Shown in pieces: positions 2,127 to 36,993 of a DNA stretch of 37,499 nucleotides. Source of the stretch: a virus. The stretch is from positions 1-37,499 of the IMG/VR virus record IMGVR_UViG_3300045988_057146; one strand, given 5' to 3'. Position 1 is the stretch's first letter. Each line of letters opens with the position of its first letter. Made by a program: the position numbers and the translations under genes. The notes beneath the pieces were generated by a model. That model saw only the letters and a list, made by a program, of their open reading frames with translations. It was not told where the DNA came from and searched no databases.

Positions 2127-2601
2127 CGTCTTCGTTAATGATTTTATCTGCTACTTCTAATCCTTTAGTTAATACATTAGGAACGCTATATCCACATTGT
2201 ACAAGGTTCTCAATAATGCTACGCACTTCATTAATACACAAAGAAGCCAATACGAACCAACCTAATAATGTGGTTACATGAAAATCAATTCCTAGCATTT
2301 TTCCAATCTCTACCAAGAATGCACTGAACGTGAACGCAACCACAATCATAATCCAATAGCCTAGCTTTTTTAGAACTCCAATCCATCCTTTATTGCTATT
2401 GATTTTATGATTAATCGCCGACTTCATACATCCCGTAACGTAATCCACTACATTCATAAATAAGAAGAATGCAAATAAATACCAATGTTCGCCTAATACG
2501 TATGTTAATACGGCAACGGCTACACCACCCATTGCATTCATCTTGTCTAGAAAATACATACTTCTTGTTATTTGTTTAAATCCTCCATTGTTCTTTTCTA
2601 T
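2101..2601 (-). CDS. Holin (phage_holin_4_1 / TcdE-like family)
   Basis: Multiple TM helices and the motif NVVDYVTGCMKS...KGWIGVLKKLGYW...NEVRSIIENL. The ORF-track GTG (2610) lies inside the AAGGAG SD. An ATA at 2601-2599 sits 8 nt after the SD and is used here as the start. Confidence 0.8.
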   Translation of the reverse strand: MEKNNGGFKQITRSMYFLDKMNAMGGVAVAVLTYVLGEHWYLFAFFLFMNVVDYVTGCMKSAINHKINSNKGWIGVLKKLGYWIMIVVAFTFSAFLVEIGKMLGIDFHVTTLLGWFVLASLCINEVRSIIENLVQCGYSVPNVLTKGLEVADKIINEDDDESSTLE

Positions 2602-2613
2602 TAAATTCACTCC

Positions 2614-3627
2614 TTACATGACTTTTAAATTATCAACTTCTAATTCTAAGGTTCTATATCCACTTTTAATGACTTCGAATATATTTCTAATTCTTGCCGT
2701 CATTACTAAACCAATTTCTGCGACAATCACATCCACCTTATCACCTAAATCATAATCAACCTTGTATTCGTATGAATCCGTATTCAATCCGAAATTCACA
2801 TTCTCTTTAATCTTACAATCTGCTAGTTTTTCAATTCCTTTTTGAATCAATACCTTCTTATATTCTTCAAGTGTTGTACCTTCTCCCATGCGCTCGGAAC
2901 GTGCGTCTACATACAACTTTTTGATTCTTTCATTCTTATTTGTTCTAGCATCATATTCAACGAAAATACGCTCTTCACCTTGTCCTTCACCACAAATGAT
3001 TGCATAATTCTTGTAATTACTAGAATCAATCATAACGTCCGGTTCTTCAACATTTCCGAACTCTGTTGAAAAGGTAACAAAATTGTTTCCGTCTGTATTG
3101 TTTTGAGTCAAATCACGACCTCGATACAACACAAATGTGAACGTACTTGATACATAGTCATATTCTATGCGGAAAGACAATTCTAACGGATATAACATCT
3201 CATAAAGCTTCTTATCAAGGCTTGCTCCTGTTTCTTGTACGTCTACGGTATCGGTAATGGATTCATCATATCTATACCCCATTTCCCATGAACAATACCT
3301 ATCTAATAATTTCTTTACGACATCAACAATCTTTCCACTACTTGAGAATGTAGGATAAATACAATCATCTGCTAGAATCTTTTCGAAAAAAGAACCTCTA
3401 AGAAGCATTTGCTTCGTGTTATTAGAAACGGAATAATGTGGTATTTCTACAATTCCTAACTCCTTATCCTCAGTTGAATAAATGTATGCAATATCACTTG
3501 AATACTGCCCTATATCAATATAAATCTCAAAATCTCCTGTCTCATAATATCGCCGATTCCACTGCACGTTATAAGGTGCTAGGTGTGTTACGATATTGAA
3601 ATCTTTATCTAATCCGAAATAAGACAT
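2614..3627 (-). CDS. Siphovirus Gp37-like tail/baseplate protein
   Basis: ATG start right after the Dit stop. The N-terminus MSYFGLDKDFNIV...YNVQWNRRYYETGDFEIYID is typical of the ReqiPepy6 Gp37-like family (from memory). Confidence 0.65.
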   Translation of the reverse strand: MSYFGLDKDFNIVTHLAPYNVQWNRRYYETGDFEIYIDIGQYSSDIAYIYSTEDKELGIVEIPHYSVSNNTKQMLLRGSFFEKILADDCIYPTFSSSGKIVDVVKKLLDRYCSWEMGYRYDESITDTVDVQETGASLDKKLYEMLYPLELSFRIEYDYVSSTFTFVLYRGRDLTQNNTDGNNFVTFSTEFGNVEEPDVMIDSSNYKNYAIICGEGQGEERIFVEYDARTNKNERIKKLYVDARSERMGEGTTLEEYKKVLIQKGIEKLADCKIKENVNFGLNTDSYEYKVDYDLGDKVDVIVAEIGLVMTARIRNIFEVIKSGYRTLELEVDNLKVM

Positions 3628-3628
3628 A

Positions 3629-4498
3629 CTATAAACCTAAATACCTTTCATTGTAATAAACCGTACAAGCTAGGTTCGTATCTCCATTGTCTGCCGTGTA
3701 TCCTATGATATTCTCGCCTAACTGAATCGTCATATCATTGAATGATGAAGTTCTGTCAACTTTTCCAATACAATTCACACCATTCTTTTTGATTGAAATA
3801 GGCTCAGAAACTAAATCAATTTCTAATACATCACCATTGTGTAGCGTATCTAATACACGAATATATTTATCTTTATTAAAGAGTTTCGGATTTGTTACAT
3901 CTCCAAACGCTTCAATAACGGCTCTGCAATATGTTTCTGTATCGCCTTGATTATCAATATAAATTTCTCTAGCGAATGTAAATGTTCCAAAGTTCACGCC
4001 TGTTTCCGGTATTTCAAAATTAAACGCTAAACCTCCACCAATTTCTGCAATATTCCTTGCGAAATCATCAAATGAAAGCAATAAAGGTTGTGTGCATAGA
4101 ATTGTAAAGTTAAGCTCTAATTCTTTGTAGATGTTAGCAGTTGGTAAGCTATACGCATATAATCTACCTCTGCAATATTTCTTTTCCCCCATATACTCAA
4201 CGATAACATCAAATAAATGAGAATATTGGAAGAAGCGCCGTAGCTTCTCCCTTTCTTCTCTTTTTTCTTCTAGTGAACCTTTAAAGATAGTTTTCACACT
4301 TCTTTCTTTCGTTGGAATACGTGAACCGATTAATCTAGCGCCATTTCCAAATGCATTGTCTTGTGTCGTGTATGAAGGCGCTACATAATCAAATCCATCT
4401 AGTCCATCACTAGATGGTATTCTCCATCTTTTGTTATCAATTTCAAATTCTTTGCCATCATCCCTTCGGACGATAACTCTTACTTTATTGATGTCTAT
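3629..4498 (-). CDS. Distal tail protein (Dit, Sipho_tail-like)
   Basis: The frame is open from 4552 with no ATG/GTG/TTG before 4297. The upstream 67 codons (IDINKVRVIVRRDDGKEFEIDNKRWRIPSSDGLDGF...) look like a genuine Dit N-terminus. ATA 4498-4496 overlaps the tape-measure TAG stop and lies 9 nt after GGAGG. Confidence 0.75.
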   Translation of the reverse strand: MDINKVRVIVRRDDGKEFEIDNKRWRIPSSDGLDGFDYVAPSYTTQDNAFGNGARLIGSRIPTKERSVKTIFKGSLEEKREEREKLRRFFQYSHLFDVIVEYMGEKKYCRGRLYAYSLPTANIYKELELNFTILCTQPLLLSFDDFARNIAEIGGGLAFNFEIPETGVNFGTFTFAREIYIDNQGDTETYCRAVIEAFGDVTNPKLFNKDKYIRVLDTLHNGDVLEIDLVSEPISIKKNGVNCIGKVDRTSSFNDMTIQLGENIIGYTADNGDTNLACTVYYNERYLGL

Positions 4499-7074
4499 TG
4501 AATTACACCTCCATATCCATATCTTGCTTGCATTCTTAACATTCGAGCAATTTCATCCGGACTTTGAACTTTATTGTAGAAGTTGATTGTCTGTCCGTTG
4601 TTATTCGTTGTAACGCTAGGCATAATTTGGGCCATGTCTTTCGCTACGGCACGAATCCACGCTTTATTTCTTTCTAATGGCACGACTGCTTCTGCTCCAT
4701 TACCTTCCAACAAACCAATTTGACCGCGTTTCAATACACCACCACGTTCTAGTTTTGGAATCTTTCCAATGCTAACTCCGGGAATCTTATTGATGATACT
4801 GATTGCACCGTTAATGCCACCGATAACACCATTTACCATTCCTTTTACACTTCCAACTAATGAACTTACTGCTCCTTCAATTCCATTGAATACACCACCT
4901 ACAAATCCTTTTAAACCGCTCCATGCATTCTGTATTCCATGTAGAACATTTGAAACCTTATTTCCTACCTTATCCATCACGATTCTTATTTTTGACCACA
5001 CATCGTCAAATACATTTGAAATAGTATCTTTTACACCTGCGAAGCTAGAATCAATTATATCAATCACATTTTGTACAATATTTCCAACATTATCGAATAC
5101 ACCTTTGATAACATTCCATATGTTTTCAAATACGCTTGAAATTGACTGAAATAAACCACTTACAAATTGAATGATTGCAGATACTACTTCACTTATCTTG
5201 CTCCAAATATTTGTCGCAATAGTTACGATTAAAGACCAAATATTAGATATGATAGATGCAATGATTTGAACAATTGGCATGACAATAGACAATATTGTAG
5301 AAATTGCACTTCCAATATATGAAATTACCATACTAATAAACGAAATGATTCCACTTACAACACTTCCAACTATCGAAAGAATAGATGTGATTACAGGAAT
5401 TAATCCAACTATATTTGAAATCACCATCTTTATAATAGCTAGGATAGGTGGGCCTACTACGCTAAGAATTTTTTGAGCTTGGTTAACAATATTTTGAATT
5501 GCGTTACCGATTTTTCTTAGAATTTCTTTTGCGATAGGTTCAAGTGCAACTTTCATTTGCTCAATCGCTTTTTTTACTTCATCAAATGCAGGCTTTAAAA
5601 CTTTGGAAACTTGGTTAACGATATTTGTGATTCCACTTGTATCAATGCTACCAAATACACTTGAAATAACTTCACCAACTTTAGCAAACCCTTGTTGAAT
5701 ACCTTGTATAGCTAATGTAATTAATACAATGATACCGGAAAGAATAGGAGTAATAAGTTCGCCTATTGGAGTAAATGAATCAAGAAATGCACGCCCTAAG
5801 CCACTTAATGCGTTCTTTAAGCCACCATTTGCAATAGCTTTAACCTTATCCATTGTTCCGGCTACATTGTTATATTCATCACCTACAGATGATAAAGATG
5901 TAATAAACTTAAGGTTGAAATCTTCTCCCATTGTACCAAAAGCAATACTTGCTTTATTTAATGCTTCTTGTTGATTTGTTGTTTCCTTAATATCTTGGAC
6001 AATTGCGTCTTGCACATCTTTTTGTGTTGCGCCACCTTCTTTATATGCCTTAAAAACTTCTTTTGTCTTATCATTGAAACTATCTAACGCTCCTTCAATA
6101 GTTCCGTCTGACATTCGTGTAGTGATTTCATTTACTGCGTCTTGCATTTTATCAAGGTTATAAGAACCACCTTTTACACCATTTGTCATAGCTTGGAAAT
6201 ATTCTTTTGCCGAATATCCTGCTTGAGCAAATTTACCGGCATATTCTGCGATATTATCACCTAATTCTCCGGAATAATCTAAACCATTTTGTGCTCCTTT
6301 AGCCATAAGGTCGAAAGCTTCTTTAGAACTAATTCCAAACTGTTCCATTAATTGCTTTGCACCTCTTAATGTTTCGTTCTCGTCCATTCCATAAACGTCT
6401 CTTAATGTAATCAAATCCTCAGTAACATTCTTTAAATCAACATCACTTATTCCTTGCATTTGTTGCTTGACTCTGCCCATCATATCGGCTACATCTGAAA
6501 CATTTTCGCCAAAATTATTAGACCAAACATCACGAGCGATGTCTTTAAATTTATTCATTTCACCACTTGAAGCACCTGTTTGAGCTTGGAATTTAGCCAT
6601 AGCGTCATCTAATTCAGTAGCTTGGTTAACACCTGCCTTAATTGCTAATGCCATACCACCGATAGCTCCTGCTACGGCAGTAACGCCTACAACACCTCCC
6701 ACGCCTAATTCTGTTAGGGCATCAGTGATTGCAGTAGCTTCCGGACTGATATTCTGAATCTTTCCTAATAGTCCATCAAATCCACCTTGAATTGATTCTA
6801 AGGCACTGTTTCCGATTTGTTTAAATACATCAAACTTTGAACCTGTTTCTTGCGTTTCTGCTTGTGTATTCTTTTGCTCTTCGTTTAAATCTTTAAGTTT
6901 ATCTTTAATCTTTGGTGGTGCTTTTGAACCTTCAGAACCTAGCTTATCAATTGCTTTTGAAGTATCTTTGATAGCGTTTGTGGCTTCACTTGATACAACT
7001 TTTACCGATTTAATACCATTCTCAAGACCACTTGTATCAATTTTCGTCTCAAACTTTAATGTTCCGTCCGATAT
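4495..7074 (-). CDS. Tail tape measure protein
   Basis: Long helical and hydrophobic repeat protein in the canonical position. The frame is open up to the TGA at 7077-7075. The upstream 124 codons begin (ATA)SDGTLKFETKIDTSG, a typical tape-measure N-terminus. GGAGGTGG lies upstream. Confidence 0.85.
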   Translation of the reverse strand: MSDGTLKFETKIDTSGLENGIKSVKVVSSEATNAIKDTSKAIDKLGSEGSKAPPKIKDKLKDLNEEQKNTQAETQETGSKFDVFKQIGNSALESIQGGFDGLLGKIQNISPEATAITDALTELGVGGVVGVTAVAGAIGGMALAIKAGVNQATELDDAMAKFQAQTGASSGEMNKFKDIARDVWSNNFGENVSDVADMMGRVKQQMQGISDVDLKNVTEDLITLRDVYGMDENETLRGAKQLMEQFGISSKEAFDLMAKGAQNGLDYSGELGDNIAEYAGKFAQAGYSAKEYFQAMTNGVKGGSYNLDKMQDAVNEITTRMSDGTIEGALDSFNDKTKEVFKAYKEGGATQKDVQDAIVQDIKETTNQQEALNKASIAFGTMGEDFNLKFITSLSSVGDEYNNVAGTMDKVKAIANGGLKNALSGLGRAFLDSFTPIGELITPILSGIIVLITLAIQGIQQGFAKVGEVISSVFGSIDTSGITNIVNQVSKVLKPAFDEVKKAIEQMKVALEPIAKEILRKIGNAIQNIVNQAQKILSVVGPPILAIIKMVISNIVGLIPVITSILSIVGSVVSGIISFISMVISYIGSAISTILSIVMPIVQIIASIISNIWSLIVTIATNIWSKISEVVSAIIQFVSGLFQSISSVFENIWNVIKGVFDNVGNIVQNVIDIIDSSFAGVKDTISNVFDDVWSKIRIVMDKVGNKVSNVLHGIQNAWSGLKGFVGGVFNGIEGAVSSLVGSVKGMVNGVIGGINGAISIINKIPGVSIGKIPKLERGGVLKRGQIGLLEGNGAEAVVPLERNKAWIRAVAKDMAQIMPSVTTNNNGQTINFYNKVQSPDEIARMLRMQARYGYGGVIQ

Positions 7075-7094
7075 TCAATTTGCCACCTCCTTTT

Positions 7095-7658
7095 CTAAAC
7101 ATCAAAATATGAATCAAATTCATCTTTCATTTCTTGTTCCTCTATTGTTAATTCGATTGGGAAAGACCACGCTTCTTTTGCTCTTTGATATGCTTTATCT
7201 TGCGTATCATTCTTTGAAGGTTTTTCATAACCTCTAACGCTCTTTGCATATCCCCATAATGTAGAATCACCAACTATATTATTGGCTAGTGCTAAGAACT
7301 TATGCCAATGCATATCACATTCCGTCAAATCAATTCCGTAAAGTTGCATAAATGCCGAATAAATATATTCCCCATCTTGCACATAGTCTAAAGTCTTAAC
7401 ACCTGTAGAATCACTTCTAGGCGTACTAGAAGGATTATATAAGAATCGTTCTAACTCTTTTAAAATATGCCCGTCTACGATAGGTGGTTCATCTACGAAT
7501 AAATAAGAGCAATCTACTTCATCAATAACATGATTATTAAATCTTTCTAATTCTTCATAAAATCTTATCCATAACCGAAAATCTGTATTTAATAAAATAG
7601 GCTCGCCATCTAGCGATTGTATGCTATTTGGCAAGCCCTTTGTCCGTAAATCAATCAT
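7095..7658 (-). CDS. Phage Gp15-like tail assembly protein
   Basis: ATGA overlap with the upstream gene and a position immediately before the tape measure. The Gp15-like N-terminus is recognised from memory. Confidence 0.6.
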   Translation of the reverse strand: MIDLRTKGLPNSIQSLDGEPILLNTDFRLWIRFYEELERFNNHVIDEVDCSYLFVDEPPIVDGHILKELERFLYNPSSTPRSDSTGVKTLDYVQDGEYIYSAFMQLYGIDLTECDMHWHKFLALANNIVGDSTLWGYAKSVRGYEKPSKNDTQDKAYQRAKEAWSFPIELTIEEQEMKDEFDSYFDV

Positions 7659-8035: not shown

Positions 8036-8542
8036 TTATACTTCTGATGTGCCTTCTGTAAATGTTACTTCTCCATCCGCTACCTTTGCAGTACCGACAC
8101 GAATATCACTTGCAAAGTTAATATTGAAGTTGATTTTTGAATCGACACCGCTCAACGTGTCAAAGATTAATTTAGCGTCAACTTCCCACGCCTTATATCC
8201 TTTTGTTTTGTCTCCATCAAACATAAATACAAGTAATGCCTTTGTATTTACTTCTTCGTTGTTTGGCACGGATTTCATCATTTTTTCGTAAATATATTCA
8301 AAATCATCTTCACCTTTAATCATTGTTAAATCTTGCGAAATCTGAGGTGAATAACTCTTTAACGATTCAGTTGGGTTCTTATCTGCGATAAAGTCATATG
8401 TTTCAGTTTCGCTATTAAATGCAATATCTAAAGTTGTAGACTTTTTAATTCGTTTGTAAGCTTCTCCCATTTGTAAGAACAATCCAATCATATACTTCTT
8501 GACTGTCTGTCCTGTATTAACTTCAGTTCCTGTAGTTGTTAT
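8036..8542 (-). CDS. Major tail protein
   Basis: The position and size fit. The frame is open 17 codons upstream of the ATG at 8491, back to a TAA. ATA 8542-8540 lies 8 nt after AAAGGAG. Confidence 0.65.
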   Translation of the reverse strand: MTTTGTEVNTGQTVKKYMIGLFLQMGEAYKRIKKSTTLDIAFNSETETYDFIADKNPTESLKSYSPQISQDLTMIKGEDDFEYIYEKMMKSVPNNEEVNTKALLVFMFDGDKTKGYKAWEVDAKLIFDTLSGVDSKINFNINFASDIRVGTAKVADGEVTFTEGTSEV

Positions 8543-8961
8543 TAATTAAGCTCCTTTCTGTATTTGATTTGAATAGTTAATGCATATACTGCTTGACTAT
8601 CTTCATTTGTGTATAGATATAAACCACTTGAAACGGAAACATCATCACAATATTTGCTTCCGTCTAGTTGTGGCAATTCTCCATTTAAATTCTTTTCGTC
8701 AATCCATACTCCCAATTCTTCTAAGAAGGAATTGTTGTCTTGCCTTTCAGATTCAATCTGTGTATTCCTACGTGCTAGAAACGTGTAGTATTCTGTACGC
8801 ATTTGAGAGCCGTCAATGTATGTATCTACAATTGCGTTAGGTTCTTTATACAACGCATAAGAGATAGCTTGTTGCGCTAAAACATCCGTTTCAATACGTT
8901 CATCTATCTGTATATTTCCATAGCCGTATAGCCATTGAATCAATGCTTTTGATACTGTCAT
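8542..8961 (-). CDS. Head-tail joining / tail completion protein (Minor_capsid_3-like)
   Basis: ATGA overlap with the upstream gene. The position is syntenic. Confidence 0.5.
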   Translation of the reverse strand: MTVSKALIQWLYGYGNIQIDERIETDVLAQQAISYALYKEPNAIVDTYIDGSQMRTEYYTFLARRNTQIESERQDNNSFLEELGVWIDEKNLNGELPQLDGSKYCDDVSVSSGLYLYTNEDSQAVYALTIQIKYRKELN

Positions 8962-9314
8962 TCTCCGTCTCCTATCATTTGTTGTGCTTTCTTCAAGATT
9001 GTTTCTGCTCCACCATTTCGCATAGCTTTTTCAAACCAATGGTCTGTTTTACCTCCTACGAAATGAGCATTCTCTTTATTGTAATACCAACGTCTAGCAT
9101 ATGGAGCACTTGGCCCACCTTGCTTTACTAATCCACTACCGATTTGAGTATTTCTTGTAGCCGAGTTAATCAATGCTCCTGTGTCTCTAGGCGTATAAGG
9201 GGACATAAGCCTAATGACTTCAGAATCAATCATTTGTTGAACTCGTCCACGTTCTTCAAGTCCTCTTGATTGCTTAATCTTGGGGATTGATTCAACATCA
9301 AGTTTAACTTTCAT
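8958..9314 (-). CDS. Head-tail joining protein (HK97 gp10-like)
   Basis: Start trimmed to the ATG at 9314 (MKVKLDVES...), because the longer track ORF overlaps the upstream gene. Contains the PYTPRDTGAL motif. Confidence 0.55.
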   Translation of the reverse strand: MKVKLDVESIPKIKQSRGLEERGRVQQMIDSEVIRLMSPYTPRDTGALINSATRNTQIGSGLVKQGGPSAPYARRWYYNKENAHFVGGKTDHWFEKAMRNGGAETILKKAQQMIGDGE

Positions 9315-9316
9315 TC

Positions 9317-9736
9317 CTATTGACCGACAACCTCCCAATGCTTCAACATATCGACATTCGTACAATCTGTCACACTTTGAATTGTTGTCCATTTGTATTT
9401 CTTTTTAGCTTCATTTATTGCTTTAATACTAGATAAATCTTCTTCTACTTCTCCAAAGAATACGAAATCTGTCTTATCTGTATTCAATGTGAAATGCTTT
9501 TGTTTCTCATCATTTGAAAGTTTTGCATATGCGTAAGGTTCAACATATCCCTCACGATATAGAATGGTAATATTTGTGGATGTGGCTATGCTCAGAATAT
9601 TACCGTTTGCAGTTCTAACCGTTGATTGTCTCCACATACATTTATCAAGAATAGAAGCTTGAAACCTATCTTCTCTTGTCAATGTATCGTAGTAGTGATT
9701 TACAAGTGTAATCGAATCTTCAAAGAATCCTATCAT
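9317..9736 (-). CDS. Head closure / head-tail adaptor protein
   Basis: The ATG at 9736 forms an ATGA overlap with the upstream stop. The position is syntenic. Confidence 0.5.
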   Translation of the reverse strand: MIGFFEDSITLVNHYYDTLTREDRFQASILDKCMWRQSTVRTANGNILSIATSTNITILYREGYVEPYAYAKLSNDEKQKHFTLNTDKTDFVFFGEVEEDLSSIKAINEAKKKYKWTTIQSVTDCTNVDMLKHWEVVGQ

Positions 9737-10100: not shown

Positions 10101-10250
10101 CTATTTTTTCTTTTTATCTTGAGGTTTAGCTTCCTCTTTTTCTTCTGTGGGTTCTTCTTTTACTTCTTCATCAACTTTAGGTTCTTCAGCTTTTGGTTGT
10201 TCAACCTCTTTAGTGATAGAAGGATAACCCCATCCAATTTCCGTTGCCAT
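10101..10250 (-). CDS. Small charged ORF (49 aa) after the capsid gene
   Basis: TAATG overlap with the capsid stop. Translation MATEIGWGYPSITKEVEQPKAEEPKVDEE...KKKK. It is below the ORF-track length cutoff and the SD is weak. Confidence 0.3.
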   Translation of the reverse strand: MATEIGWGYPSITKEVEQPKAEEPKVDEEVKEEPTEEKEEAKPQDKKKK

Positions 10251-11119
10251 TACTTTGCACTAGCAGATAAGTAGATACCTGCTACCTTATTGGCGTATAC
10301 ATCAACGATTCCATACTTACGATATTTCAATACATCTGAATCCGATTCAATGTTATTGCTTGCCGGAATTACATTTGAAACAGTATGTTTATCCCATTTC
10401 ATGACGGAAGGTTTGTGAACAATCAAAAAGTTGATTACGTGTCCATCCTCTGCCTTCTTATATCCACCGTCTAACTCTGTATCTTTTCCACTCAACAATT
10501 TAATTTTCGTATAGAAGCGTGTTGAAGGTACAGGAACAACCTTTGCGAATCCTTGTAAAGCTTCACGAGATTTGTAAGTGTCCAACGCCTTAACACTATT
10601 TAATAAAGTAGGTGTTGAATATAAAATACGTTGTTCACTAGGTACTTCATCTTCATCCATTTTAGTAGTGGCTTTTAATAATGCGCTCAAGAATGTTTCT
10701 GCATCTGCGAAATCTTCGGCAACTGTTGTGATTCCTTCTGTTCCTGCAATTTTAGCGAATGTGTAAGCGTCTGCTTCCGGTGCTACCTTTGTACGCATAA
10801 GTTCCGCTCCTGCTCTACCGAACGCAATATTCATTGATTCCGCATTATCTTGAGTATCAACTGCAATCTTTGTTCCTCTATCATAGTCGAATGTAGCAGT
10901 TTTCCACTCTAATGTCACTGCGTTAGATGTATAACCACTATTTCTATCATAGTCTCCTAAACCTTTGACGGAAATTTGTGGATAGATGATTTCTTTTGCG
11001 TTTGCTCCTGCTCGTACCATTGTAGCGTCTGCGTTCAAATCACCTGTAACTGAAGCTAACTTATATACCTCATCCAAATTTGAGACATACGTTTTAGCTA
11101 ATGCAATTTGATTTGCTAT
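10250..11119 (-). CDS. Major capsid protein
   Basis: Follows the scaffold gene. The frame is open 14 codons upstream of the TTG at 11077, back to a TAA. (ATA)ANQIALAKTYVSNLDEVYK looks like the native N-terminus. ATA 11119-11117 lies 9 nt after AGGAGG. Confidence 0.8.
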   Translation of the reverse strand: MANQIALAKTYVSNLDEVYKLASVTGDLNADATMVRAGANAKEIIYPQISVKGLGDYDRNSGYTSNAVTLEWKTATFDYDRGTKIAVDTQDNAESMNIAFGRAGAELMRTKVAPEADAYTFAKIAGTEGITTVAEDFADAETFLSALLKATTKMDEDEVPSEQRILYSTPTLLNSVKALDTYKSREALQGFAKVVPVPSTRFYTKIKLLSGKDTELDGGYKKAEDGHVINFLIVHKPSVMKWDKHTVSNVIPASNNIESDSDVLKYRKYGIVDVYANKVAGIYLSASAK

Positions 11120-15629: not shown

Positions 15630-15925
15630 GTAATCACTTCCTTATTCAATACTCTATATACTTTTGTTGTTTTGATAGGAGAAGCAATAGCAACTCCTCC
15701 TTTTGTAATCATTCTTAATTGAATGTTACAAGTACCTTCTTTAAAGGTGAGCGTTTCTTCTTGGCTTAATAACACTGAAATAACATTTCCTTCAATATCT
15801 AAATCACTTGATTCTTTTTTCAAGATATATCCGTTCTGTTCAAATACAACATAGATATTCTGCATTTCATTTAAATTAATATCGTTTATTGTGATTTGAA
15901 TTGTTGGTGTTGTTCCTTGTCTCAT
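15626..15925 (-). CDS. Small beta-rich (Ig-like?) structural protein
   Basis: ATGA overlap with the upstream gene. 99 aa. The Ig-like call is tentative. Confidence 0.45.
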   Translation of the reverse strand: MRQGTTPTIQITINDINLNEMQNIYVVFEQNGYILKKESSDLDIEGNVISVLLSQEETLTFKEGTCNIQLRMITKGGVAIASPIKTTKVYRVLNKEVIT

Positions 15926-16731
15926 GATTTCACCTTATAAGTCCAATCTGTACCGACTTCACCTTCATCAACTTCATACGCCCAATCGGCTAGAATCTCT
16001 TGTCCGTTCTCGTCTACAAGCGTTCCGTCATCTGATAAAAGAATCGTAGTGAAATGGTTGTTCATAAGCATTTGCTCAACATTTGCGATTCGATTCATCA
16101 ACTTACCTGCCGTATTTGAATCCAATGTATCTTTTACACTCGCAAACCATTCATTGAATTCATTCTCGTTTGCTTTCATTTCAGATTGATTCTGTTCTTT
16201 TACTTCTTTGAATAATTCGGTCATTTGTGTGAATAAGTCTAATGTTTCAACACTCTTGATAGCATTTGTAACTGCCCCACAACGTGTAGAATCTAGCCTT
16301 GTATCAGTAATATTTGAGCCTTTGATTTCACTTGCATTTCCTTCTACTGTAACCGTAGCCAATACTAAATCATAAATAGAATCACTTCTCGTAATTCCAT
16401 TGTTGATGTCGCTTGATAATAAGACAATGTTTCTGTAAGCATCATTATCATTCAATCTAAGAATGATGTTGTAGCTTTTAGTAGCAGTATTCTTTTCTAG
16501 TGTGATGGCTTCGTCATCTTTCTGCCAATAGAATGCTCCATTGATATTTGCTCTTCCTGCTTTAACTGTTAATGTTAAACCTTGAGCCTTCTCAACTCTT
16601 AAATGGTCAGAACTAGAATCATCTATGAATACACCATTTGTAAAATAACTTGAGAACAACCTTCTAAAAGCGTCATATAGTACTAATCTATCACCATTTC
16701 TTGAGACGAACGGAAAATATGTAGTTGCTAT
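15922..16731 (-). CDS. Phage structural (fibre-module) protein, 269 aa
   Basis: The frame is open 24 codons upstream of the TTG at 16659. (ATA)ATTYFPFVSRNGDRLVLYDAFRRLFSSYFTNGVF looks like the native N-terminus. ATA 16731-16729 overlaps the portal TAG stop and has GAGGAGGA upstream. Confidence 0.6.
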   Translation of the reverse strand: MATTYFPFVSRNGDRLVLYDAFRRLFSSYFTNGVFIDDSSSDHLRVEKAQGLTLTVKAGRANINGAFYWQKDDEAITLEKNTATKSYNIILRLNDNDAYRNIVLLSSDINNGITRSDSIYDLVLATVTVEGNASEIKGSNITDTRLDSTRCGAVTNAIKSVETLDLFTQMTELFKEVKEQNQSEMKANENEFNEWFASVKDTLDSNTAGKLMNRIANVEQMLMNNHFTTILLSDDGTLVDENGQEILADWAYEVDEGEVGTDWTYKVKS

Positions 16732-21261: not shown

Positions 21262-21262
21262 C

Positions 21263-22621: not shown

Positions 22622-22648
22622 TTAAAAGAACCGAGACAAACGCTCGGT
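22622..22648 (-). terminator. Terminator-like hairpin between the tRNA-like gene and the late operon
   Basis: ACCGAG/CTCGGT stem with a 7-nt loop, followed by TCTTTTA on the minus strand. It lies about 15 nt before the ParB SD. Confidence 0.5.
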
Positions 22649-22804: not shown

Positions 22805-22821
22805 AACACAATTATTACATG

Positions 22822-22844
22822 AAAAAATGCTCACATTGTGAGCA
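22822..22844 (-). terminator. Rho-independent terminator overlapping the 3' end of the regulator gene (hairpin copy 2)
   Basis: TGCTCAC/GTGAGCA stem followed by T6 on the minus strand. It contains GCTCACATTGTGAGC. Confidence 0.6.
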
Positions 22845-23157
22845 CTTTTTTTAAATTCTTGTTTATTTTTCTTGGAATTTCTTCTCTCGCATAGCCTACA
22901 ATATTAGATGTCTTTTCTGCACTGAATCCCTTTATATATCTATACTCAATCATGGCTCGAGTCGTATCATCAAGTTGGCTTAATTTGTCTTTTACATAGT
23001 TCATTCTTCTTGCATAATCCGCATGAGCCAAGAATAACTCGGCTTTTAAAGGATAAATTGCTTCATCTCTTTGTAGCTCTGCTATCTTTTGCTCATAGTA
23101 TGTATAAGATTGGCATTCGCATAGAAAATGCTTTTTAACTTCTTCATATGTGCTCAT
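22831..23157 (-). CDS. Late-gene transcriptional regulator-like protein (ArpU/RinA/sigma region-4-like)
   Basis: 108 aa. C-terminal RAMIEYRYIKGFSAEKTSNIVGYAREEIPRKINKNLKK is HTH-like. It is the last early gene before the packaging module. Confidence 0.5.
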   Translation of the reverse strand: MSTYEEVKKHFLCECQSYTYYEQKIAELQRDEAIYPLKAELFLAHADYARRMNYVKDKLSQLDDTTRAMIEYRYIKGFSAEKTSNIVGYAREEIPRKINKNLKKVLTM

Positions 23158-23348
23158 GACGTATACATCCTCATTAATCTATTTTCTAATTTGCCAACTT
23201 TATTTTTTAATCTATTAATCTCGTGTGTTTGATTATGAATTGTTGCATTTCTTTCTTTTAAAGTCTGCTCCAATTCAATATTCTTCCTTCCTAGTCTATT
23301 GTTTTTAGAAATTAACTTTTTAATCCTTTCTTCATAATTCATTTCTAT
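23154..23348 (-). CDS. Small coiled-coil protein
   Basis: The GTG at 23357 is part of the GGAGGTG SD. ATA 23348 lies 8 nt after GGAGG. An ATG at 23342 is an alternative start. Confidence 0.5.
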   Translation of the reverse strand: MEMNYEERIKKLISKNNRLGRKNIELEQTLKERNATIHNQTHEINRLKNKVGKLENRLMRMYTS

Positions 23349-26666: not shown

Positions 26667-27407
26667 CTACGCTCCAAATAGTTGTGCTCTAAGCCTATTA
26701 AATTCATCTTGGACTTCTTTATCTGTCTTTGTGTTCTGCTCTGCATAAAACTTTGAATCAAGTGTGATAGGCTTATCTTTATTTCTTTTGGTCCATTCAT
26801 CATGTACCCATTTTTGAATCACTAGTGAATGGTTTTTGTATTTTTTTCCACTCGTTTCAATATATTCATCTAATATCTTTATATGCTCATCTAATGAATC
26901 ACCATATAAATCTAATAGGTGTGTGTGTTCTTTATCTGTAAGTAACACGTGTGAATATTCTCCATATTTATGTTTACTTTGTTTATTAGTATTTAATTTA
27001 TTAGTATTTGGTTTATTAGTATCTTTATAAGTGTAGGGGTTTTCAAGTACTTGAGTTTCAACACCTTGCTTTTCAATACCTTGATTTTCAAGGGGTTGAA
27101 AATCCACCTCTTGAGGATTCTCAAAGAATGTATATTGATATTGAATTCTATTGCTATTTGCGTTCGGATATATCTTCTCTACTCTTAAATATCCATTCTT
27201 TTTTAATTCCTTAATTGCACTTTCAACTGAATCTTTCCCATCTTTTACAATTCCAACTAATCCATTTACTGTATAATGCCATTCTTCCGGTAAACCAAGA
27301 ACAACACTTAACAAGCCTATTGCTTTAAGTGATAAGCGTTTATCTTTTAAATGTGTATTGCTCATCACTGTATAGTTTCTGTTCTTAATAACTCTAATTA
27401 CTGCTAT
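26667..27407 (-). CDS. Replication initiator / replisome organiser (winged-helix N-terminus, DnaD-like C-terminus)
   Basis: NYTVMSNTHLKDKRLSLKAIGLLSVVL... is an N-terminal wHTH, and the gene contains internal iterons. The TTG at 27422 lacks an SD. ATA 27407-27405 lies 8 nt after GGAGG. Confidence 0.6.
   Translation of the reverse strand: MAVIRVIKNRNYTVMSNTHLKDKRLSLKAIGLLSVVLGLPEEWHYTVNGLVGIVKDGKDSVESAIKELKKNGYLRVEKIYPNANSNRIQYQYTFFENPQEVDFQPLENQGIEKQGVETQVLENPYTYKDTNKPNTNKLNTNKQSKHKYGEYSHVLLTDKEHTHLLDLYGDSLDEHIKILDEYIETSGKKYKNHSLVIQKWVHDEWTKRNKDKPITLDSKFYAEQNTKTDKEVQDEFNRLRAQLFGA
26982..27099. repeat. Two sets of 15-bp-phased iterons (candidate origin) inside the initiator gene
   Basis: Three copies of TTTATTAGTAT(TT) at 26982, 26997 and 27012. 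Four copies of TTTTCAAnACCTTGA-like units at 27040, 27055, 27070 and 27085. Confidence 0.65.
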
Positions 27408-27753
27408 TTTGCTCACCTCCAAGCACTACGACTTGTTTTAGGATTTCATCAATAATCTTGTCGGTGTATTCTATATAACATTTAATTCTTTCATCACTAA
27501 AATATCCGTCAATTTTGCGCAATGCTTTATATATTGCAATTATTCTTTCTTTGTTTAATCCTTCTTTTGTGTAGCTATTGCACTCATGTAATCTATACAT
27601 GAATTCCTCTGTAATGTCATAACAAGTACACATTTCTTCATACACGCCAATTGCGTTCGTATCTTCTTCGGTTTCTGCAATTAAGTAAAATGAATTAAAT
27701 TCATCAAAGTAAACTTGCTTTGCTACGTTTACTGCCATTTCTTGTTCTCTCAT
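27394..27753 (-). CDS. Hypothetical early protein
   Basis: ATGA overlap with the RusA stop. Confidence 0.5.
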   Translation of the reverse strand: MREQEMAVNVAKQVYFDEFNSFYLIAETEEDTNAIGVYEEMCTCYDITEEFMYRLHECNSYTKEGLNKERIIAIYKALRKIDGYFSDERIKCYIEYTDKIIDEILKQVVVLGGEQNSSN

Positions 27754-28118
27754 AATATTTCTACCTCTATCCTTGGATTTTCTTTATCGGTAAATACTGT
27801 ATGATTCACTTGATTAATGTATTTTCTTGAATCATCTTCAAGTATTCCCGTTCTAACTAATGAATCTTGAATGAATTTAGTTGCGAATGTGATATTGTCT
27901 ATATCTCTTCTGTTATCCGGCTCATACCAATTAATATTTAATTTAATTGGGTAGTTCTTGACTTCGTAAACTTCACCGAAATTCACTGCCTGTAAGATAT
28001 AAGCCATTACAAGACGCTCGTTCTTTTTCACCATTTCTGCTCCCTTGTAACGATTAGCTCGGCAAGCTCTAATATATTCATTCAATCCATCTAATTTTCC
28101 TTTAATAACAAACTTTAT
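27750..28118 (-). CDS. rusA: RusA-family Holliday junction resolvase
   Basis: RRDIDNITFATKFIQDSLVRTGILEDD motif. The frame is open 11 codons upstream of the TTG at 28085. (ATA)KFVIKGKLDGLNEYIRACRANRYKGA is the typical Gram-positive RusA N-terminus. ATA 28118-28116 overlaps the upstream TAA stop and lies 7 nt after GGGGG. Confidence 0.75.
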   Translation of the reverse strand: MKFVIKGKLDGLNEYIRACRANRYKGAEMVKKNERLVMAYILQAVNFGEVYEVKNYPIKLNINWYEPDNRRDIDNITFATKFIQDSLVRTGILEDDSRKYINQVNHTVFTDKENPRIEVEIL

Positions 28119-28890: not shown

Positions 28891-29187
28891 CTATAGATAA
28901 TTCTTATGGAATATATCCATAAACTCCTTTCTTGTGTGCTCTTTCTCAAATGCCTGTTGGCATTCCTTTTTAAGTTTCATGTCTAATTTGTGGCTGAAAT
29001 GTACTCCTTCACTGCTCATGTTGTGATGTCTAGCACATAATCTTACATAGCAACCATGCTCAATTGATTTCTTTCTATTAGCATTTCCAAAGTAAATTTC
29101 ATGTGTATGTAAATCTAAAGTTGAACCACATACATAGCACCTAGACATATCACTTTGAAGTATTGACTTATCTCGTTTTATTTCCAA
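28891..29187 (-). CDS. Zn-binding (HNH/DUF968-like) protein
   Basis: CYVCGS...HTHEIYFG...CARHH motifs. The start is ambiguous: TTG 29187, or ATA 29181 overlapping the upstream TAA. Confidence 0.45.
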   Translation of the reverse strand: MEIKRDKSILQSDMSRCYVCGSTLDLHTHEIYFGNANRKKSIEHGCYVRLCARHHNMSSEGVHFSHKLDMKLKKECQQAFEKEHTRKEFMDIFHKNYL

Positions 29188-30744: not shown

Positions 30745-30913
30745 ATTCGTTCACCTCCATTCTAGATTCGCAAGTGTTAATTTGATTTACTTCTTGTAAA
30801 TCTCTCACATTCAGTTGATTAGCAATTTTTTTTGCTTCTTCACTATCATGTGCTTCAACTTCGAACGTAACATTTGCAGTTACGTCGAAGGTTACGAAAT
30901 ATGTTCTAGTCAT
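30734..30913 (-). CDS. Hypothetical small protein (59 aa)
   Basis: Start trimmed to the ATG at 30913, after AAGAGGTGA. Confidence 0.45.
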   Translation of the reverse strand: MTRTYFVTFDVTANVTFEVEAHDSEEAKKIANQLNVRDLQEVNQINTCESRMEVNEYDN

Positions 30914-31034
30914 GCTTCTCACCTCTTTTCGATTCATCTAAGATACAAGCGATATATCCTAGATAAAATTCTGAAAGCTCATAGCCTTTCTTTTGTAGTT
31001 CGCCTAAGGCTTCAAAAATTCTCTTGTCTAGTAT
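30906..31034 (-). CDS. Possible 42-aa ORF starting at ATA just downstream of the ribozyme
   Basis: GGAGGTGA, then 4 nt, then ATA 31034-31032. Translation (M)LDKRIFEALGELQKKGYELSEFYLGYIACILDESKRGEKHD. No in-frame ATG/GTG/TTG is available. Confidence 0.3.
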   Translation of the reverse strand: MLDKRIFEALGELQKKGYELSEFYLGYIACILDESKRGEKHD

Positions 31035-31464: not shown

Positions 31465-31483
31465 GTGTTTTTTGTCCTTTTAA

Positions 31484-31511
31484 TTTACAAGTTTATTCTT
31501 TGTGATATTAT
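31484..31511 (+). promoter_or_regulatory. Repressor promoter
   Basis: TTTACA (31484-31489), a 16-nt spacer, then TATTAT (31506-31511) with TG at 31503-31504 as an extended -10. Confidence 0.5.
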
Positions 31512-31533
31512 GAATATAGAGGAGGTAAAAAAT

Positions 31534-31908
31534 TTGACTATAGGTGAAAGAATAAATGCGATTAGGTCTAGCTTGAACCTAAGCATGGAGAAATTCGGAA
31601 AGAAGATTGGTATAACTCGTAGTAGTGTCAATTCACTTGAAAAAGGTGTAAACAATCCTAGTGACCAAACAATCAAATTAATATGTAAAGAATATAATGT
31701 TGATTACTTTTGGTTAACTGAAGGTAAAGGCAATATGTTTCTAGAATTGCCGGATAACACTATTGATGAATTAATTGATGAATACCAAATTAACCCAAAT
31801 CAAAAGCCACTTATAAAGGCTTACTTAAAATCAAGCGAAGAAACGAAGGAAAGGTTATTAGATTTCATTTATGGAATCATTAAGGAATTAGACAATGAAA
31901 ATCAATAA
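31534..31908 (+). CDS. XRE-family (CI-like) repressor
   Basis: The TTG at 31534 lies 8 nt after GAGGAGG and gives MTIGERINAIRSSLNLSMEKFGKKIGITRSSVNSLEKG, a classic HTH_XRE. The longer track ORF is rejected. Confidence 0.8.
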   Translation: MTIGERINAIRSSLNLSMEKFGKKIGITRSSVNSLEKGVNNPSDQTIKLICKEYNVDYFWLTEGKGNMFLELPDNTIDELIDEYQINPNQKPLIKAYLKSSEETKERLLDFIYGIIKELDNENQ

Positions 31909-32500
31909 AAAAAGGCGATATTCAATCGCCGTTGCTTTAGTATTATGTTTAGGCTTATCTATGCCTGTAAATGTATATGCTTTTAGTAATGAAGTTCAGT
32001 ATTTAACTACATCAGAAGCAACTAAAGAATATAAAATTAAAAAGAAGGACATGAAAGCTCTTGTTAAGGTAATGAAAAAGCTAGGTGTTCCTAAGAAATT
32101 TATTGATATTACAGATTATAAAAAAGATGTATTTACTATAAATTATCTTGAAAATAGCTATACTGCTACCGTTAAAAAAGGAAAGGTAAAACTTGTTAAT
32201 CAAGGCGATTTCATTTTGTATAAAAAAGGTGAGGTATATCAAAAGATTACTAATGCATATATTACAAATTCAGATAAAATAGGTATTCATGAATCTGTAG
32301 AAAATGCAGTAAATGAAAATGTAGGGGCGCAATGTACATTCCAAGATTATAAAGAATGGGATTATAGAAGAGCCGAGAACACCTTTACAATTAGAGGACA
32401 AGCCGAAGCAAACGGAACTACATACAACTTTGAAGTGAGAGCTAGATGGGATAGAATGCACTCACACCCTATAACAATAGATTCGGTTACATTGCAATAA
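31895..32500 (+). CDS. Secreted / surface protein co-transcribed with the repressor
   Basis: Signal peptide MKINKKRRYSIAVALVLCLGLSMPVNVYA. It overlaps the repressor stop, and AAGGAA lies 7 nt upstream. Confidence 0.65.
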   Translation: MKINKKRRYSIAVALVLCLGLSMPVNVYAFSNEVQYLTTSEATKEYKIKKKDMKALVKVMKKLGVPKKFIDITDYKKDVFTINYLENSYTATVKKGKVKLVNQGDFILYKKGEVYQKITNAYITNSDKIGIHESVENAVNENVGAQCTFQDYKEWDYRRAENTFTIRGQAEANGTTYNFEVRARWDRMHSHPITIDSVTLQ

Positions 32501-34600: not shown

Positions 34601-34613
34601 CTTGTGTTCCTCC

Positions 34614-35215: not shown

Positions 35216-35226
35216 GAACTTTTTTG

Positions 35227-35262
35227 GAAAAATAAAAATAGCCTACGCATTACACGTAGGCT
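35227..35262 (-). terminator. Rho-independent terminator after the endolysin gene
   Basis: AGCCTACG/CGTAGGCT stem followed by ATTTTTATTTTT on the minus strand. Confidence 0.65.
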
Positions 35263-35268
35263 TTATTA

Positions 35269-36993
35269 TTATTTAAATAGTTTCGACACCTTTTTTAATA
35301 ACTTTAAAATCAAAGTGATAATCCGATTGATTCCATCTACATTAATTTTATCTTTTTTTGAATCATTACTTGAATCATCTTTTTTAGAATTGCTCAACTC
35401 ATCCAAATATTGTGATACTAATGATTTAAAATCATCCCATCCCTCATCAAGAATCTTGTGTGGGCAATATTTATAATTACCACTTGTCATCTTGTAATCA
35501 TGGTGCTTTTTCAAGCAATCAATACTCAATCCATATTTATACAATAATTCAGATGCAAGTCTTGCTCCATTCTCTCTAGCTTTTTTCCATTCATCTTGTG
35601 AATCGTTATCATTATCCTTGGCGATTTCGATTTGGATACCTGTTCTATTACCAAGTCCATATGCTCCATCACCTGTTGCAAATGCATTACGATTCAATGG
35701 TAATGATTCGATGATGTCTTTATCATCCACCGAGAAATGCCATGATTTATATTCCTTCGAATTATGCAATGCATTATTTAAAGCTCTAGCAGTTCCATTT
35801 GGTGTAGCCGAGTTATGAATGATGATTGCTTGAGGTTTATTCATCAAATAAGGGCATTTGTACGGATACAAGCTCTTATCAATTAAATCAACTGTAACTC
35901 CATCATGATTATAAACTTCATCTTTTACATCGTGACCTTCATATTCTCCTTTATTGACTGAACTAAATCCATTTGTATTTTCTGTTGGTGTAGGCGTTGG
36001 CTTAACTTCTTCTTTTTTTTCTTCTTCCGGTGAAGTAAATGTTGCCCACATTTGACTTCTATCTTCGGTTGCTGAAACTGCTAAGAATACTTTTCTTGAA
36101 CCATCTTTATACACAATATATCTGTGCCCATTGCCCACATATTTCCAGTAATAACGAATTGAATCACCAGTGTTGTATGTCTTACATACTGTGCCAGTTG
36201 GAGAATCATAACGCGCTCTCACGCCGTCTACAGTAAATGTAGCAATGCCATCTTCTTGTGTTAATGTAATAGATTCAACAGGTTTTTGTTCTTCGATAGC
36301 ACTAAAGTCTGCCCATGGTTCAGTACCAGCTTCATTACCATTTACTGCAACGAAATAACGATAGCTTGCACCATCCGCTTGATGTTCAACCCAACTAATA
36401 TATCTATGGCCGTTACCAACCCATTTTTGGGTATATTCTAATTTTCTGCCACTTTTCAATGTTTCAACCGCCAAACCTGTAGGTGTATCTCTTCGCTTTT
36501 GAATATCATATTTAAGCGTAGCATAAGCGTGCTCATCTATTAGTTTAGATTCGCTATAATCGCTATTTTGAGCTTGATTTACGAAACATTTAGGTCTAAA
36601 TGCAGTATCAAAGGTAGCACTGTATGGAAGTTTACATAAATTAAATGCCCCATTTACTCCACCTTGGTTCTGCCCTAAGAACCAACCGTATCCACCACTT
36701 GCGTCGTGGTCGAAAATTGCAATGTGCGAGTATGGAGTCCATCCTGCTACTTCTCTAAATACTGCAATATCACCAGGTTGCATAACAGTGACTTCATTAC
36801 AATAATTTAAGATTCCATTTGTTTTTCGATTGTTCCAAATGTCTTTTGCATAACCGCTTGTAGTACAGTGAATTGCTTTATATCCTAAATCAATCATGTA
36901 CTTCATAGTTCCATCCCAACACTGAGCACCATAATATCCGTCAATGTCGAATGCTTTGCCTAATACGGCTTTTTTAAAATCTTGATAATTTAT
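35269..36993 (-). CDS. Endolysin: CHAP, two SH3b-like repeats and an Amidase_2 (PGRP) domain
   Basis: The CHAP catalytic motif GAQCWDG lies upstream of the first ATG (36906). The frame is open back to a TAA, and ATA 36993-36991 lies 9 nt after AAGGAGGA. NGHRYI(S/V) repeats appear twice. The amidase motifs are IIIHNSAT...GIQIEIA...YCPHK. Confidence 0.85.
   Translation of the reverse strand: MNYQDFKKAVLGKAFDIDGYYGAQCWDGTMKYMIDLGYKAIHCTTSGYAKDIWNNRKTNGILNYCNEVTVMQPGDIAVFREVAGWTPYSHIAIFDHDASGGYGWFLGQNQGGVNGAFNLCKLPYSATFDTAFRPKCFVNQAQNSDYSESKLIDEHAYATLKYDIQKRRDTPTGLAVETLKSGRKLEYTQKWVGNGHRYISWVEHQADGASYRYFVAVNGNEAGTEPWADFSAIEEQKPVESITLTQEDGIATFTVDGVRARYDSPTGTVCKTYNTGDSIRYYWKYVGNGHRYIVYKDGSRKVFLAVSATEDRSQMWATFTSPEEEKKEEVKPTPTPTENTNGFSSVNKGEYEGHDVKDEVYNHDGVTVDLIDKSLYPYKCPYLMNKPQAIIIHNSATPNGTARALNNALHNSKEYKSWHFSVDDKDIIESLPLNRNAFATGDGAYGLGNRTGIQIEIAKDNDNDSQDEWKKARENGARLASELLYKYGLSIDCLKKHHDYKMTSGNYKYCPHKILDEGWDDFKSLVSQYLDELSNSKKDDSSNDSKKDKINVDGINRIITLILKLLKKVSKLFK

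Follow-up and report, generated by a model that had tools for sequence, protein, structure and literature searches.

The virus genome deposited as IMG/VR record IMGVR_UViG_3300045988_057146 (positions 1 to 37,499, the whole of which was analyzed and is hereafter called the window) raises the question of how a phage translates genes, among them those for its capsid, portal, major tail protein and endolysin, whose reading frames stay open well upstream of the first ATG, GTG or TTG. The window is a 37.5-kb temperate siphovirus genome of 33% GC, with nearly all genes on the - strand, and belongs to a phage group that is common in the human gut. Fourteen of its genes appear to begin with ATA, and at 22729-22804 (- strand) it encodes a tRNA of initiator type with the anticodon UAU, which complements AUA. 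We put at about 70% the probability that this phage-encoded tRNA reads AUA in initiation and drives the ATA starts.

An earlier note on this DNA had proposed that ATA initiates at least 8 and possibly 14 genes. We checked all 14 candidates, each on the - strand, and the coordinates proved right throughout: the ATA lies on Met1 of homologues, is conserved across independent assemblies, swaps only with ATG, and is not seen in sister clades. Counting ATA as a start, the 62 genes of the - strand divide into 44 with ATG, 14 with ATA, three with GTG and one with TTG. Gene-by-gene inspection also bore out that the eight strongest cases lack a canonical start for 11-124 codons, the distance from ATA to the first ATG, GTG or TTG being 67 codons in Dit (distal tail protein), 124 in the tape measure protein, 17 in the major tail protein, 14 in the major capsid protein, 24 in a 269-amino acid (aa) protein, 31 in the portal, 11 in RusA and 29 in the endolysin. 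In these eight, an upstream in-frame stop lies 0-18 codons from the ATA. A GGAGG-type Shine-Dalgarno (SD) core occurs 5-11 nt upstream of 13 of the 14 start ATAs, as opposed to 8 of 160 internal in-frame ATA codons, and the SD duplexes of ATA genes are stronger than those of ATG genes (medians -12.55 vs -10.30 kcal/mol, p = 0.0036). Homologues of the portal, small terminase (terS) and Dit begin 3-6 residues from the ATA position. Moreover, PHROG or Pfam profiles are in register with the ATA-defined N-terminus of the 269-aa protein, the major tail candidate, RusA, the gene at 29181 and the replication initiator, and for all of these except RusA PHROG profiles register at residues 1-10. Together, the SD spacing, the 5′ position in the open reading frame (ORF) and the alignment of homologue Met1 confirm the assignment of ATA as the real start of these genes.

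The capsid and endolysin genes illustrate how homologue N-termini, checked against the ATA-extended proteins, put Met1 on the ATA, in agreement with the earlier note, which had taken the upstream stretches for native N-termini. The major capsid gene (10250-11119, -, ATA at 11119) has ATA in 40 close relatives, while 23 distant IMG/VR relatives (46-62% identity) have ATG exactly on the ATA, with N-termini of the form M-A/P-N-x-I-A-L vs I-A-N-Q-I-A-L in the window; annotated capsid genes of cultured phages likewise have ATG on the same codon and align from residue 1. The endolysin (CHAP and Amidase_2 domains; 35269-36993, -, ATA at 36993-36991, SD AAGGAGG 10 nt upstream) has its CHAP domain at residues 18-109, and the catalytic QCWD motif with its Cys precedes the first ATG (codon 30). 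Its homologue P0008 (84% identity) begins MTYEQFKNQVLGK vs I-NYQDFKKAVLGK in the window, placing Met1 on the ATA. Five near-identical matches (P0001-P0005) are N-terminally truncated and in two relatives (P0006, P0019) the reading extends past the ATA into upstream sequence, while nearly all other matches of at least 70% identity span 97-100% of the query, the four that were read all beginning with Met. Public protein sets thus hold this endolysin both in truncated form (P0001, 545 aa, from an internal ATG) and over-extended through the SD (P0006, 598 aa), and the portal, capsid and head protein are also truncated in called genes.

These endolysin homologues bear on a first alternative, namely that ATA initiation is a trait of host translation, for example through a relaxed initiation factor 3 (IF3) or an AUA-reading host initiator. 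Initiator tRNAs with fewer anticodon-stem G:C pairs are tolerated in some low-GC lineages, which counts in its favor. However, the prophage with the 84%-identical endolysin, which probably resides in the same or a close host, uses ATG for that endolysin and for all nine of its called genes, and the five flanking host genes start with ATG as well. The earlier note had held that a similar frequency of ATA starts in host housekeeping genes would mark a host trait; that comparison is touched here only lightly, through this prophage and its five flanking genes. With the endolysin homologues of at least 70% identity (near-identical ones aside) mostly full-length and Met-initiated where read, and with the tRNA encoded by the phage itself, we consider a host trait very improbable.

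The remaining six of the eight strongest cases have the same character. Dit (3629-4498, -, ATA at 4498) has the SD GGAGGTG 7 nt upstream and ATA in 28 of 28 relatives; its ATA overlaps the stop of the tape measure gene in a manner resembling the usual ATGA overlaps, and its Sipho_tail N-domain runs from residue 28, ahead of the first GTG at codon 67. The tape measure protein (4495-7074, -, ATA at 7074), which carries a PhageMin_Tail domain, has the SD AAAGGAGG and an ATA immediately after a TGA stop, retained in 32 of 32 relatives. The major tail protein candidate (phrog_3099; 8036-8542, -, ATA at 8542) aligns over residues 10-167 with positions 4-169 of the 171-position profile, and its start is ATA in 30 of 33 relatives and ATG in one. 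The 269-aa protein (15922-16731, -, ATA at 16731), which the earlier note had assigned to a fiber module, is instead a head protein (phrog_1220; residues 3-225 vs profile 8-249), with ATA in 44 of 44 relatives. The portal (16728-18131, -, ATA at 18131; SD AAGGAGGT 5 nt upstream) has ATA in 45 of 45 relatives, and portals of the ATG clade align no more than six residues from the ATA. RusA resolvase (27750-28118, -, ATA at 28118) has ATA in eight of eight relatives; it is 122 aa long against a 124-position profile, its residue 24 aligning to profile position 21.

The six further genes that the earlier note had added with less assurance are included among the 14 confirmed, those at 23348 and 31034 being the weakest. 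The holin (Phage_holin_4_1; 2101-2601, -, ATA at 2601; SD AAGGAG 8 nt upstream) starts mostly with ATA among relatives, with ATG at the same or the adjacent codon in three contigs. In terS (19469-19810, -, ATA at 19810; ATA in 22 of 22 relatives) the SD AGGGGG sits between an upstream ATG and the ATA, and residue 5 of the L047 homologue (MAKIGRPRIEI) aligns with residue 8 of the query. The replication initiation protein (26667-27407, -, ATA at 27407; SD GGAGGTGA 5 nt upstream) matches phrog_11718 positions 2-99 with residues 2-98, and the 96-aa protein phrog_7566 (28891-29181, -, ATA at 29181) matches profile positions 4-96 with residues 4-96 of 96; the SD of the latter is weak, and relatives retain its ATA, two of them one codon away. 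The 64-aa coiled-coil protein (23154-23348, -, ATA at 23348; ATA in 29 of 29 relatives) has an alternative in-frame ATG only two codons on, at 23342, the SD AGGAGGTG being separated by 6 nt from the ATA and by 12 nt from that ATG. Weakest of all is a 42-aa ORF (30906-31034, -, ATA at 31034; SD GGAGGTGA 4 nt upstream; ATA in five of five relatives), for which neither a family match nor a homologue was found. A possible fifteenth case, which is ambiguous, concerns the head gene at 8958-9392: an ATA at 9318-9320 (-) with GGGAGGT 9 nt upstream overlaps the TAG stop of the upstream gene and is followed two codons on by an in-frame ATG. The orthologue in contig L121 starts with ATA, and the annotated ATG at 9392 would give a 75-nt overlap with the upstream gene.

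Comparison sets comprised 35 related IMG/VR loci (the ATA clade), 23 more distant relatives and 27 metagenome contigs; the contigs with the ATA pattern came from six IMG/VR datasets and, for the 27 metagenome contigs, from many ENA/NCBI assemblies. When ORFs of at least 80 codons were typed by their first SD-preceded candidate start, the 35 related loci yielded 225 ATA, 237 ATG, two ATT and one ATC, and the 23 more distant relatives 7 ATA and 171 ATG. That ATA, and not ATT or ATC, takes the place of ATG is what anticodon pairing, rather than general leakiness, would lead one to expect. The same ATAs recur in >60 related contigs from some 30 or more independent gut metagenome assemblies, and ATA/ATG polymorphism occurs at identical sites among relatives. 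Specifically, the gene at 15316 has ATG in the window and ATA in most relatives in an otherwise identical context, the gene at 14455 has ATA in three contigs, and the major tail and holin genes have ATG in a few.

This recurrence also weighs on the idea that the ATAs are not starts at all, being either sequencing, assembly or base-modification artefacts of ATG or codons of genes whose expression relies on coupling, reinitiation or frameshifting from upstream ORFs. A DNA-modification-like cassette in the window and the abutment of several ATAs on an upstream stop would suit such an idea. Yet the same ATAs vary by sequence lineage across all of these assemblies, AATG is not depleted elsewhere (413 AATG vs 415 AATA), the tRNA anticodon fits ATA, and most ATA genes have an SD of their own, several following real intergenic gaps; we find this explanation scarcely credible. 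A sequencing artefact, in particular, is excluded because the pattern is the same in the six IMG/VR datasets and the 27 metagenome contigs, and global motif conversion was rejected on the near equality of AATG and AATA and the recurrence in independent assemblies.

Reassignment of ATA in elongation was ruled out, since the window holds 160 internal ATA codons (14.3 per 1000 codons), ATA there being an ordinary isoleucine codon that makes up 19% of Ile. In a test of selection on the third base of the start codon within the close clade, 37% of synonymous A/G sites were polymorphic; in the filtered set, an ATA haplotype occurred in 0 of 26 mainly-ATG genes and an ATG haplotype in 3 of 13 mainly-ATA genes, with ATA variants at 14455 and 25182 appearing in looser comparisons. 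The test indicates constraint on the ATG starts of this clade. All 14 ATA genes run in the lytic transcription direction, and the lysogeny genes examined (the integrase and two + strand genes at 31465-32500) have canonical starts.

The earlier note had argued that so many ATA starts imply a dedicated mechanism, and had listed a tRNA-like gene at 22729-22804 merely as a control for reporter constructs. That gene is now the probable dedicated mechanism, which is supported as far as sequence goes. On the - strand, A1 is at 22804, A73 at 22732 and an encoded CCA at 22731-22729; the Rfam model RF00005 matches 22804-22732 with 48.8 bits (gathering score 29), and an ARAGORN run on the window missed it. 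In the cmscan alignment the anticodon UAU (22770-22772, -) lies in the loop C32-U-U34-A35-U36-U37-A38, and the loop CTTATTA is unchanged in all 62 contigs with this tRNA body (35 from IMG/VR and 27 metagenome contigs); a search of IMG/VR for a CAU version of the same body found none.

The body, judged by its features, is of initiator type and not Ile-like. A mismatch at 1:72 and a purine 11:pyrimidine 24 pair are recognition elements of the formyltransferase (PMC9976931), and the changes A11C/U24G reduce that recognition (PMC11122139). In the window the 1:72 pair is A1xA72; it is C1xA72 in L121, L115 and L163 and U1:A72 in L089 and L105, and never G:C. Across eight aligned variants, the formyltransferase determinants G2:C71, C3:G70 and A73 are invariant, as is the D stem GAGC/GCUC with A11:U24, and the cloverleaf is 95% paired, with ten pairs altered on both sides. 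The anticodon stem has two forms in the clade, CUAGU/GCUAG and UCGGU/GCCGA, three compensatory double changes apart, the second of which nearly equals the canonical formylmethionine (fMet) initiator stem UCGGG/CCCGA. The variable loop AGGUC and the 3′ end match Escherichia coli tRNAfMet, the comparison sequence having been verified. Annotated tRNAs among blastn matches in 50,697 phage records were all tRNA-Met and none tRNA-Ile, and the traits of elongator tRNA-Ile(UAU), namely a Watson-Crick 1:72 pair, pyrimidine 11:purine 24 and purine 37, are replaced here by A1xA72, A11:U24 and U37.

Anticodon and start codon vary together across lineages. The UAU tRNA was found in 29 of the 35 IMG/VR contigs of the ATA clade, five others ending before its position. 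In a second lineage, represented by L121 and L096, whose capsid is 60% identical, the initiator-like tRNA also has the anticodon UAU but has clearly diverged: its first pair is C1xA72 and its T loop is canonical, while the CUUAUUA loop and the U31-G39 pair are shared with the window. Of about 13 genes in this lineage, those for the capsid (IANSIALSKNYVDLL) and portal (IEDCIRNFLNKQGYS) and another four to six start with ATA and have strong SDs. In the sister clade L035-L040/L056 (capsid ~53% identical), an initiator tRNA with G1xG72, G2:C71, C3:G70, A11:U24, the GGG/CCC stem and the anticodon CAU lies ~700 nt upstream of the capsid gene (e.g., L035 9259-9332), and all starts are ATG; this combination may be the ancestral state. 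The remaining relatives have ATG starts and no such tRNA. Tested as a match between anticodon and start, UAU and ATA thus go together in two lineages, and CAU or no tRNA goes with ATG in 23 relatives. This co-variation is the strongest argument for ATA starts driven, as we propose, by the tRNA. Additionally, the start type agrees in each of six genes with clear orthologues in both ATA lineages (ATA in portal and capsid; ATG in terL, minor capsid, scaffold and g10080), which hints that the ATA/ATG partition is kept by selection. Its conservation at ~60% capsid identity suggests that the per-gene choice is functional, not the product of drift.

The principal alternative is that the host fMet-tRNA(CAU) reads ATA inefficiently, aided by strong SDs, while the phage tRNA does another job, such as that of an elongator for internal AUA or a decoy for anticodon nucleases. 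In Staphylococcus aureus, infC, ccpN, citZ and cvfC1 have attenuating AUA or AUU starts that are used by the normal initiator; AUA starts with extended SDs there reach 10-30% of AUG output, and the AUA of Bacillus subtilis ccpN is conserved (PMC13009471). The SD duplexes of the ATA genes are indeed the stronger ones, the window tRNA is without the three G:C pairs of initiators, the L121-type tRNA is labeled tRNA-Ile(tat) by ARAGORN, and the 160 internal ATA codons need decoding. However, this tRNA has the 1:72 mismatch, an anti-elongator feature, and R11:Y24, and is closest to tRNA-Met rather than tRNA-Ile; the AUA usage of the candidate host type is similar to that of the phage, which leaves an additional elongator without an evident use. 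A CAU initiator leaks at ATT and ATC to at least the same extent as at ATA, yet these two are essentially unused as starts, and ATA heads the capsid and major tail proteins, which are made in the highest copy. ATA starts, moreover, occur only in company with the UAU tRNA, in two lineages, and are absent from the CAU sister clade. On this balance we consider the use of ATA by the host initiator unlikely.

Several observations nonetheless weigh against initiation by the phage tRNA. IF3 and the P site select initiators by three consecutive G:C pairs in the anticodon stem, 29-31:39-41 (PMC9723500), where the window tRNA has A29:U41, G30:C40 and U31-G39, and the loss of these pairs is the main difficulty because IF3 selects by them. 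The L090-type variant and L121 retain two, G29:C41 and G30:C40, and the sister-clade CAU tRNA and that of L163 all three. With U37, the closing U31-G39 pair, a bulged T stem, G55 and a D loop without GG, the tRNA could be a poor or unusual one; the bulged base varies (C, U or A), the T loop is UGCAAAU, and the elbow of the L121-type tRNA is normal. The altered elbow of the window tRNA may bear on the contacts of IF3 with the initiator elbow. Furthermore, 44 genes retain ATG, no match to the tRNA was found in the 43-kb ATA-clade contig 3300029219_000010, and the UAU tRNAs of L089 and L115 (also L095 and L146) lack clear ATA starts in the short DNA examined. Finally, given the AUA starts of S. 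aureus and the stronger SDs here, the tRNA may not be strictly needed.

Other UAU initiator-like tRNAs were seen in unrelated contigs and metagenome-assembled genomes (MAGs), some of high GC: L089/L095 (64% GC), L105/L117, L115, L146 and L104. A further one, at 9471-9543 of the 95.8-kb metagenome contig L163, has a full fMet-type body with C1xA72, three G:C pairs and the anticodon UAU, and adjoins an odd tRNA with a four-base anticodon call. The same contig contains, at 6778-7416, a 212-codon ORF without any ATG, GTG or TTG whose first codon is an ATA directly following a stop, and many of its ORFs are bounded by TAG.

The following course of events would account for ATA initiation by the phage tRNA. 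The anticodon of a phage initiator-type tRNA would have changed from CAU to UAU, and the start codon from ATG to ATA in 14 of 62 genes to match. SDs at the correct spacing, stronger than those at ATG genes, place the 30S subunit on the ATA, where the phage tRNA would pair perfectly with AUA in the P site. The retained 1:72 mismatch, G2:C71, C3:G70, A73 and A11:U24 would make the tRNA a substrate of the formyltransferase and initiation factor 2 and keep it off EF-Tu. Methionyl-tRNA synthetase depends on the CAU anticodon (PMC9976931), and the isoleucyl-tRNA synthetase (IleRS) of Firmicutes accepts UAU, as far as the sources cited there go (refs 44, 45 in PMC9976931). Given anticodon-dependent charging and a UAU-reading Firmicute IleRS, the tRNA would probably be charged with isoleucine and not methionine, in which case ATA-started proteins would begin with (formyl-)Ile. 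Expression of the phage tRNA would then be required for the ATA genes or would enhance their output. Its expression, charging and formylation, and the N-terminal residue of the proteins, are predictions from sequence.

We lean, by a small degree, towards a wider claim, that this would be an orthogonal initiation system occurring in nature, in which a temperate gut phage has AUA as its private start codon and its own initiator tRNA, probably bearing formyl-Ile; its virion, packaging and lysis proteins would be made efficiently only with the tRNA, and its genes, if moved to a genome without it, would lose most of their translation. What purpose this would serve is a matter of speculation, and gating, a firewall, or a safeguard should host tRNAfMet come under attack may be imagined; the translational gating that the earlier note had suggested as the purpose of the ATA starts likewise stays at the level of inference.

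The setting of the tRNA gene suggests that it is an insulated unit with its own promoter. A TGnNATAAT sequence resembling an extended -10 element (22811-22819, -), a putative promoter, ends 6-7 nt before position +1 of the tRNA and is kept in at least 90% of 47 distinct contexts; a promoter scan did not call it. Conserved hairpins flank the gene, the one just upstream (22828-22844) being G+C-rich and terminator-like with T/A runs on both sides, and the other (22630-22648, -), also terminator-like, lying between the tRNA and a ParB-like gene. On one side, the tRNA neighbors a 108-aa protein with weak sigma region-4 similarity, whose gene precedes the upstream hairpin, and on the other the late region (ParB-like, TAGT, radical SAM, and terS onward). 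Weak sigma-70 region-4 similarity occurs in two small - strand proteins, at 1860-2147 after the holin and at 22831-23157 just upstream of the tRNA; the latter may act as a late activator. The stretch immediately downstream of the tRNA gene (19954-22604, -) encodes a ParB_N protein, a TET-associated glycosyltransferase (PF20691) and a 435-aa radical-SAM-like protein, a set that may, from its composition, be a DNA hypermodification cassette.

We found no close relatives among cultured phages, and the protein-level matches to named phages were too distant to indicate a host. A portal scan of GTDB representatives found nothing, and a genome scan for the tRNA pattern turned up nothing but att-like fragments, further UAU variants and MAGs that are unrelated. 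The two parts of the lysis module lie apart, the holin near the low end (491-2601) and the endolysin near the high end (35269-37482), so that the window would represent the genome in circularly permuted or wrapped form; an ENA contig measures 37,659 bp. GATC is absent from the window (positions 1-37499; 0 observed vs ~111 expected), and CCAG, CAGC, GCTG and CTGG are strongly depleted, which suggests avoidance of restriction sites; a contig of the candidate host type (L111) has GATC at normal density.

With respect to known systems, phage tRNAs including initiator copies, phage stop-codon recoding, engineered initiators and rare attenuating AUA starts in hosts are all already known. Natural coupling of an initiator-type tRNA having a non-CAU anticodon with a matching start shift in a quarter of the genome appears, from the sequences compared, to be new, and our searches of the literature found no relevant description of AUA initiation or a UAU initiator tRNA in phages. 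The phage tRNA aligns over its full length with E. coli tRNAfMet and shares with bacterial tRNAfMet the 1:72 mismatch, G2:C71, C3:G70, A73, A11:U24, the AGGUC variable loop and the GCAACCA 3′ end; it differs in having UAU and not CAU, one of the three G:C pairs (two in a variant), U37, U31-G39, an altered D/T elbow and a bulged T stem. Phage initiator-type tRNA-Met(CAU), as in the sister clade, mycobacteriophage Phabba and others, is likewise a phage-borne initiator-like copy in a related head module, but retains CAU and three G:C pairs, and the phages that carry it start with ATG only.

CrAss-like and Lak phages recode stop codons with phage suppressor tRNAs, especially in late and structural genes, and thereby confuse gene callers. 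The present case may be compared with theirs in that a codon would gain from a phage tRNA a meaning particular to the phage, used above all in late and structural genes, but it is initiation that is altered, not termination, and ATA stays Ile in elongation. An initiator body that is given another anticodon starts translation at the codon complementary to the new one, as is reported for the amber initiator and in work by Schulman and RajBhandary. Anticodon-mutant initiators usually start with the amino acid of the new anticodon. The initiation activity of E. coli initiator anticodon mutants was also studied by Mayer et al. 2003, as cited in PMC11122139. The phage tRNA resembles these in joining an initiator body and a new anticodon to a complementary start codon; they are laboratory constructs, whereas it is natural, conserved and tied to a genome-wide start shift. 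Host attenuation starts share the AUA at a strong or extended SD, but involve a handful of regulatory genes, against 14 of 62 phage genes including the most abundant virion proteins, together with a tRNA that fits the codon. The UAU anticodon is also that of an elongator tRNA-Ile present in lactic acid bacteria and in Mycoplasma mobile, as cited in PMC9976931 (refs 44, 45), but the phage body is of initiator/Met type, with the 1:72 mismatch, R11:Y24 and a pyrimidine at 37.

In annotation, about one gene in four of this gut phage group, including capsid, portal, tail and endolysin, is truncated or over-extended by standard gene callers, and pipelines should check whether tRNA anticodons match start codons, bearing in mind that ARAGORN misses this tRNA. 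If ATA initiation by the phage tRNA is true, it would be, as far as we found, the first natural non-CAU initiator tRNA with a systematic change of start codon, an initiation counterpart of phage stop-codon recoding, and would mean that nature can rewire the near-universal pairing of AUG with CAU in initiation. It would also offer a ready-made orthogonal pair of initiator and start codon for synthetic biology in Firmicutes, and would raise N-terminal Ile, deformylation, and IF3 proofreading without three G:C pairs as questions. For the phage itself, it would provide a testable model in which the lysis and virion genes of the prophage are gated at translation.

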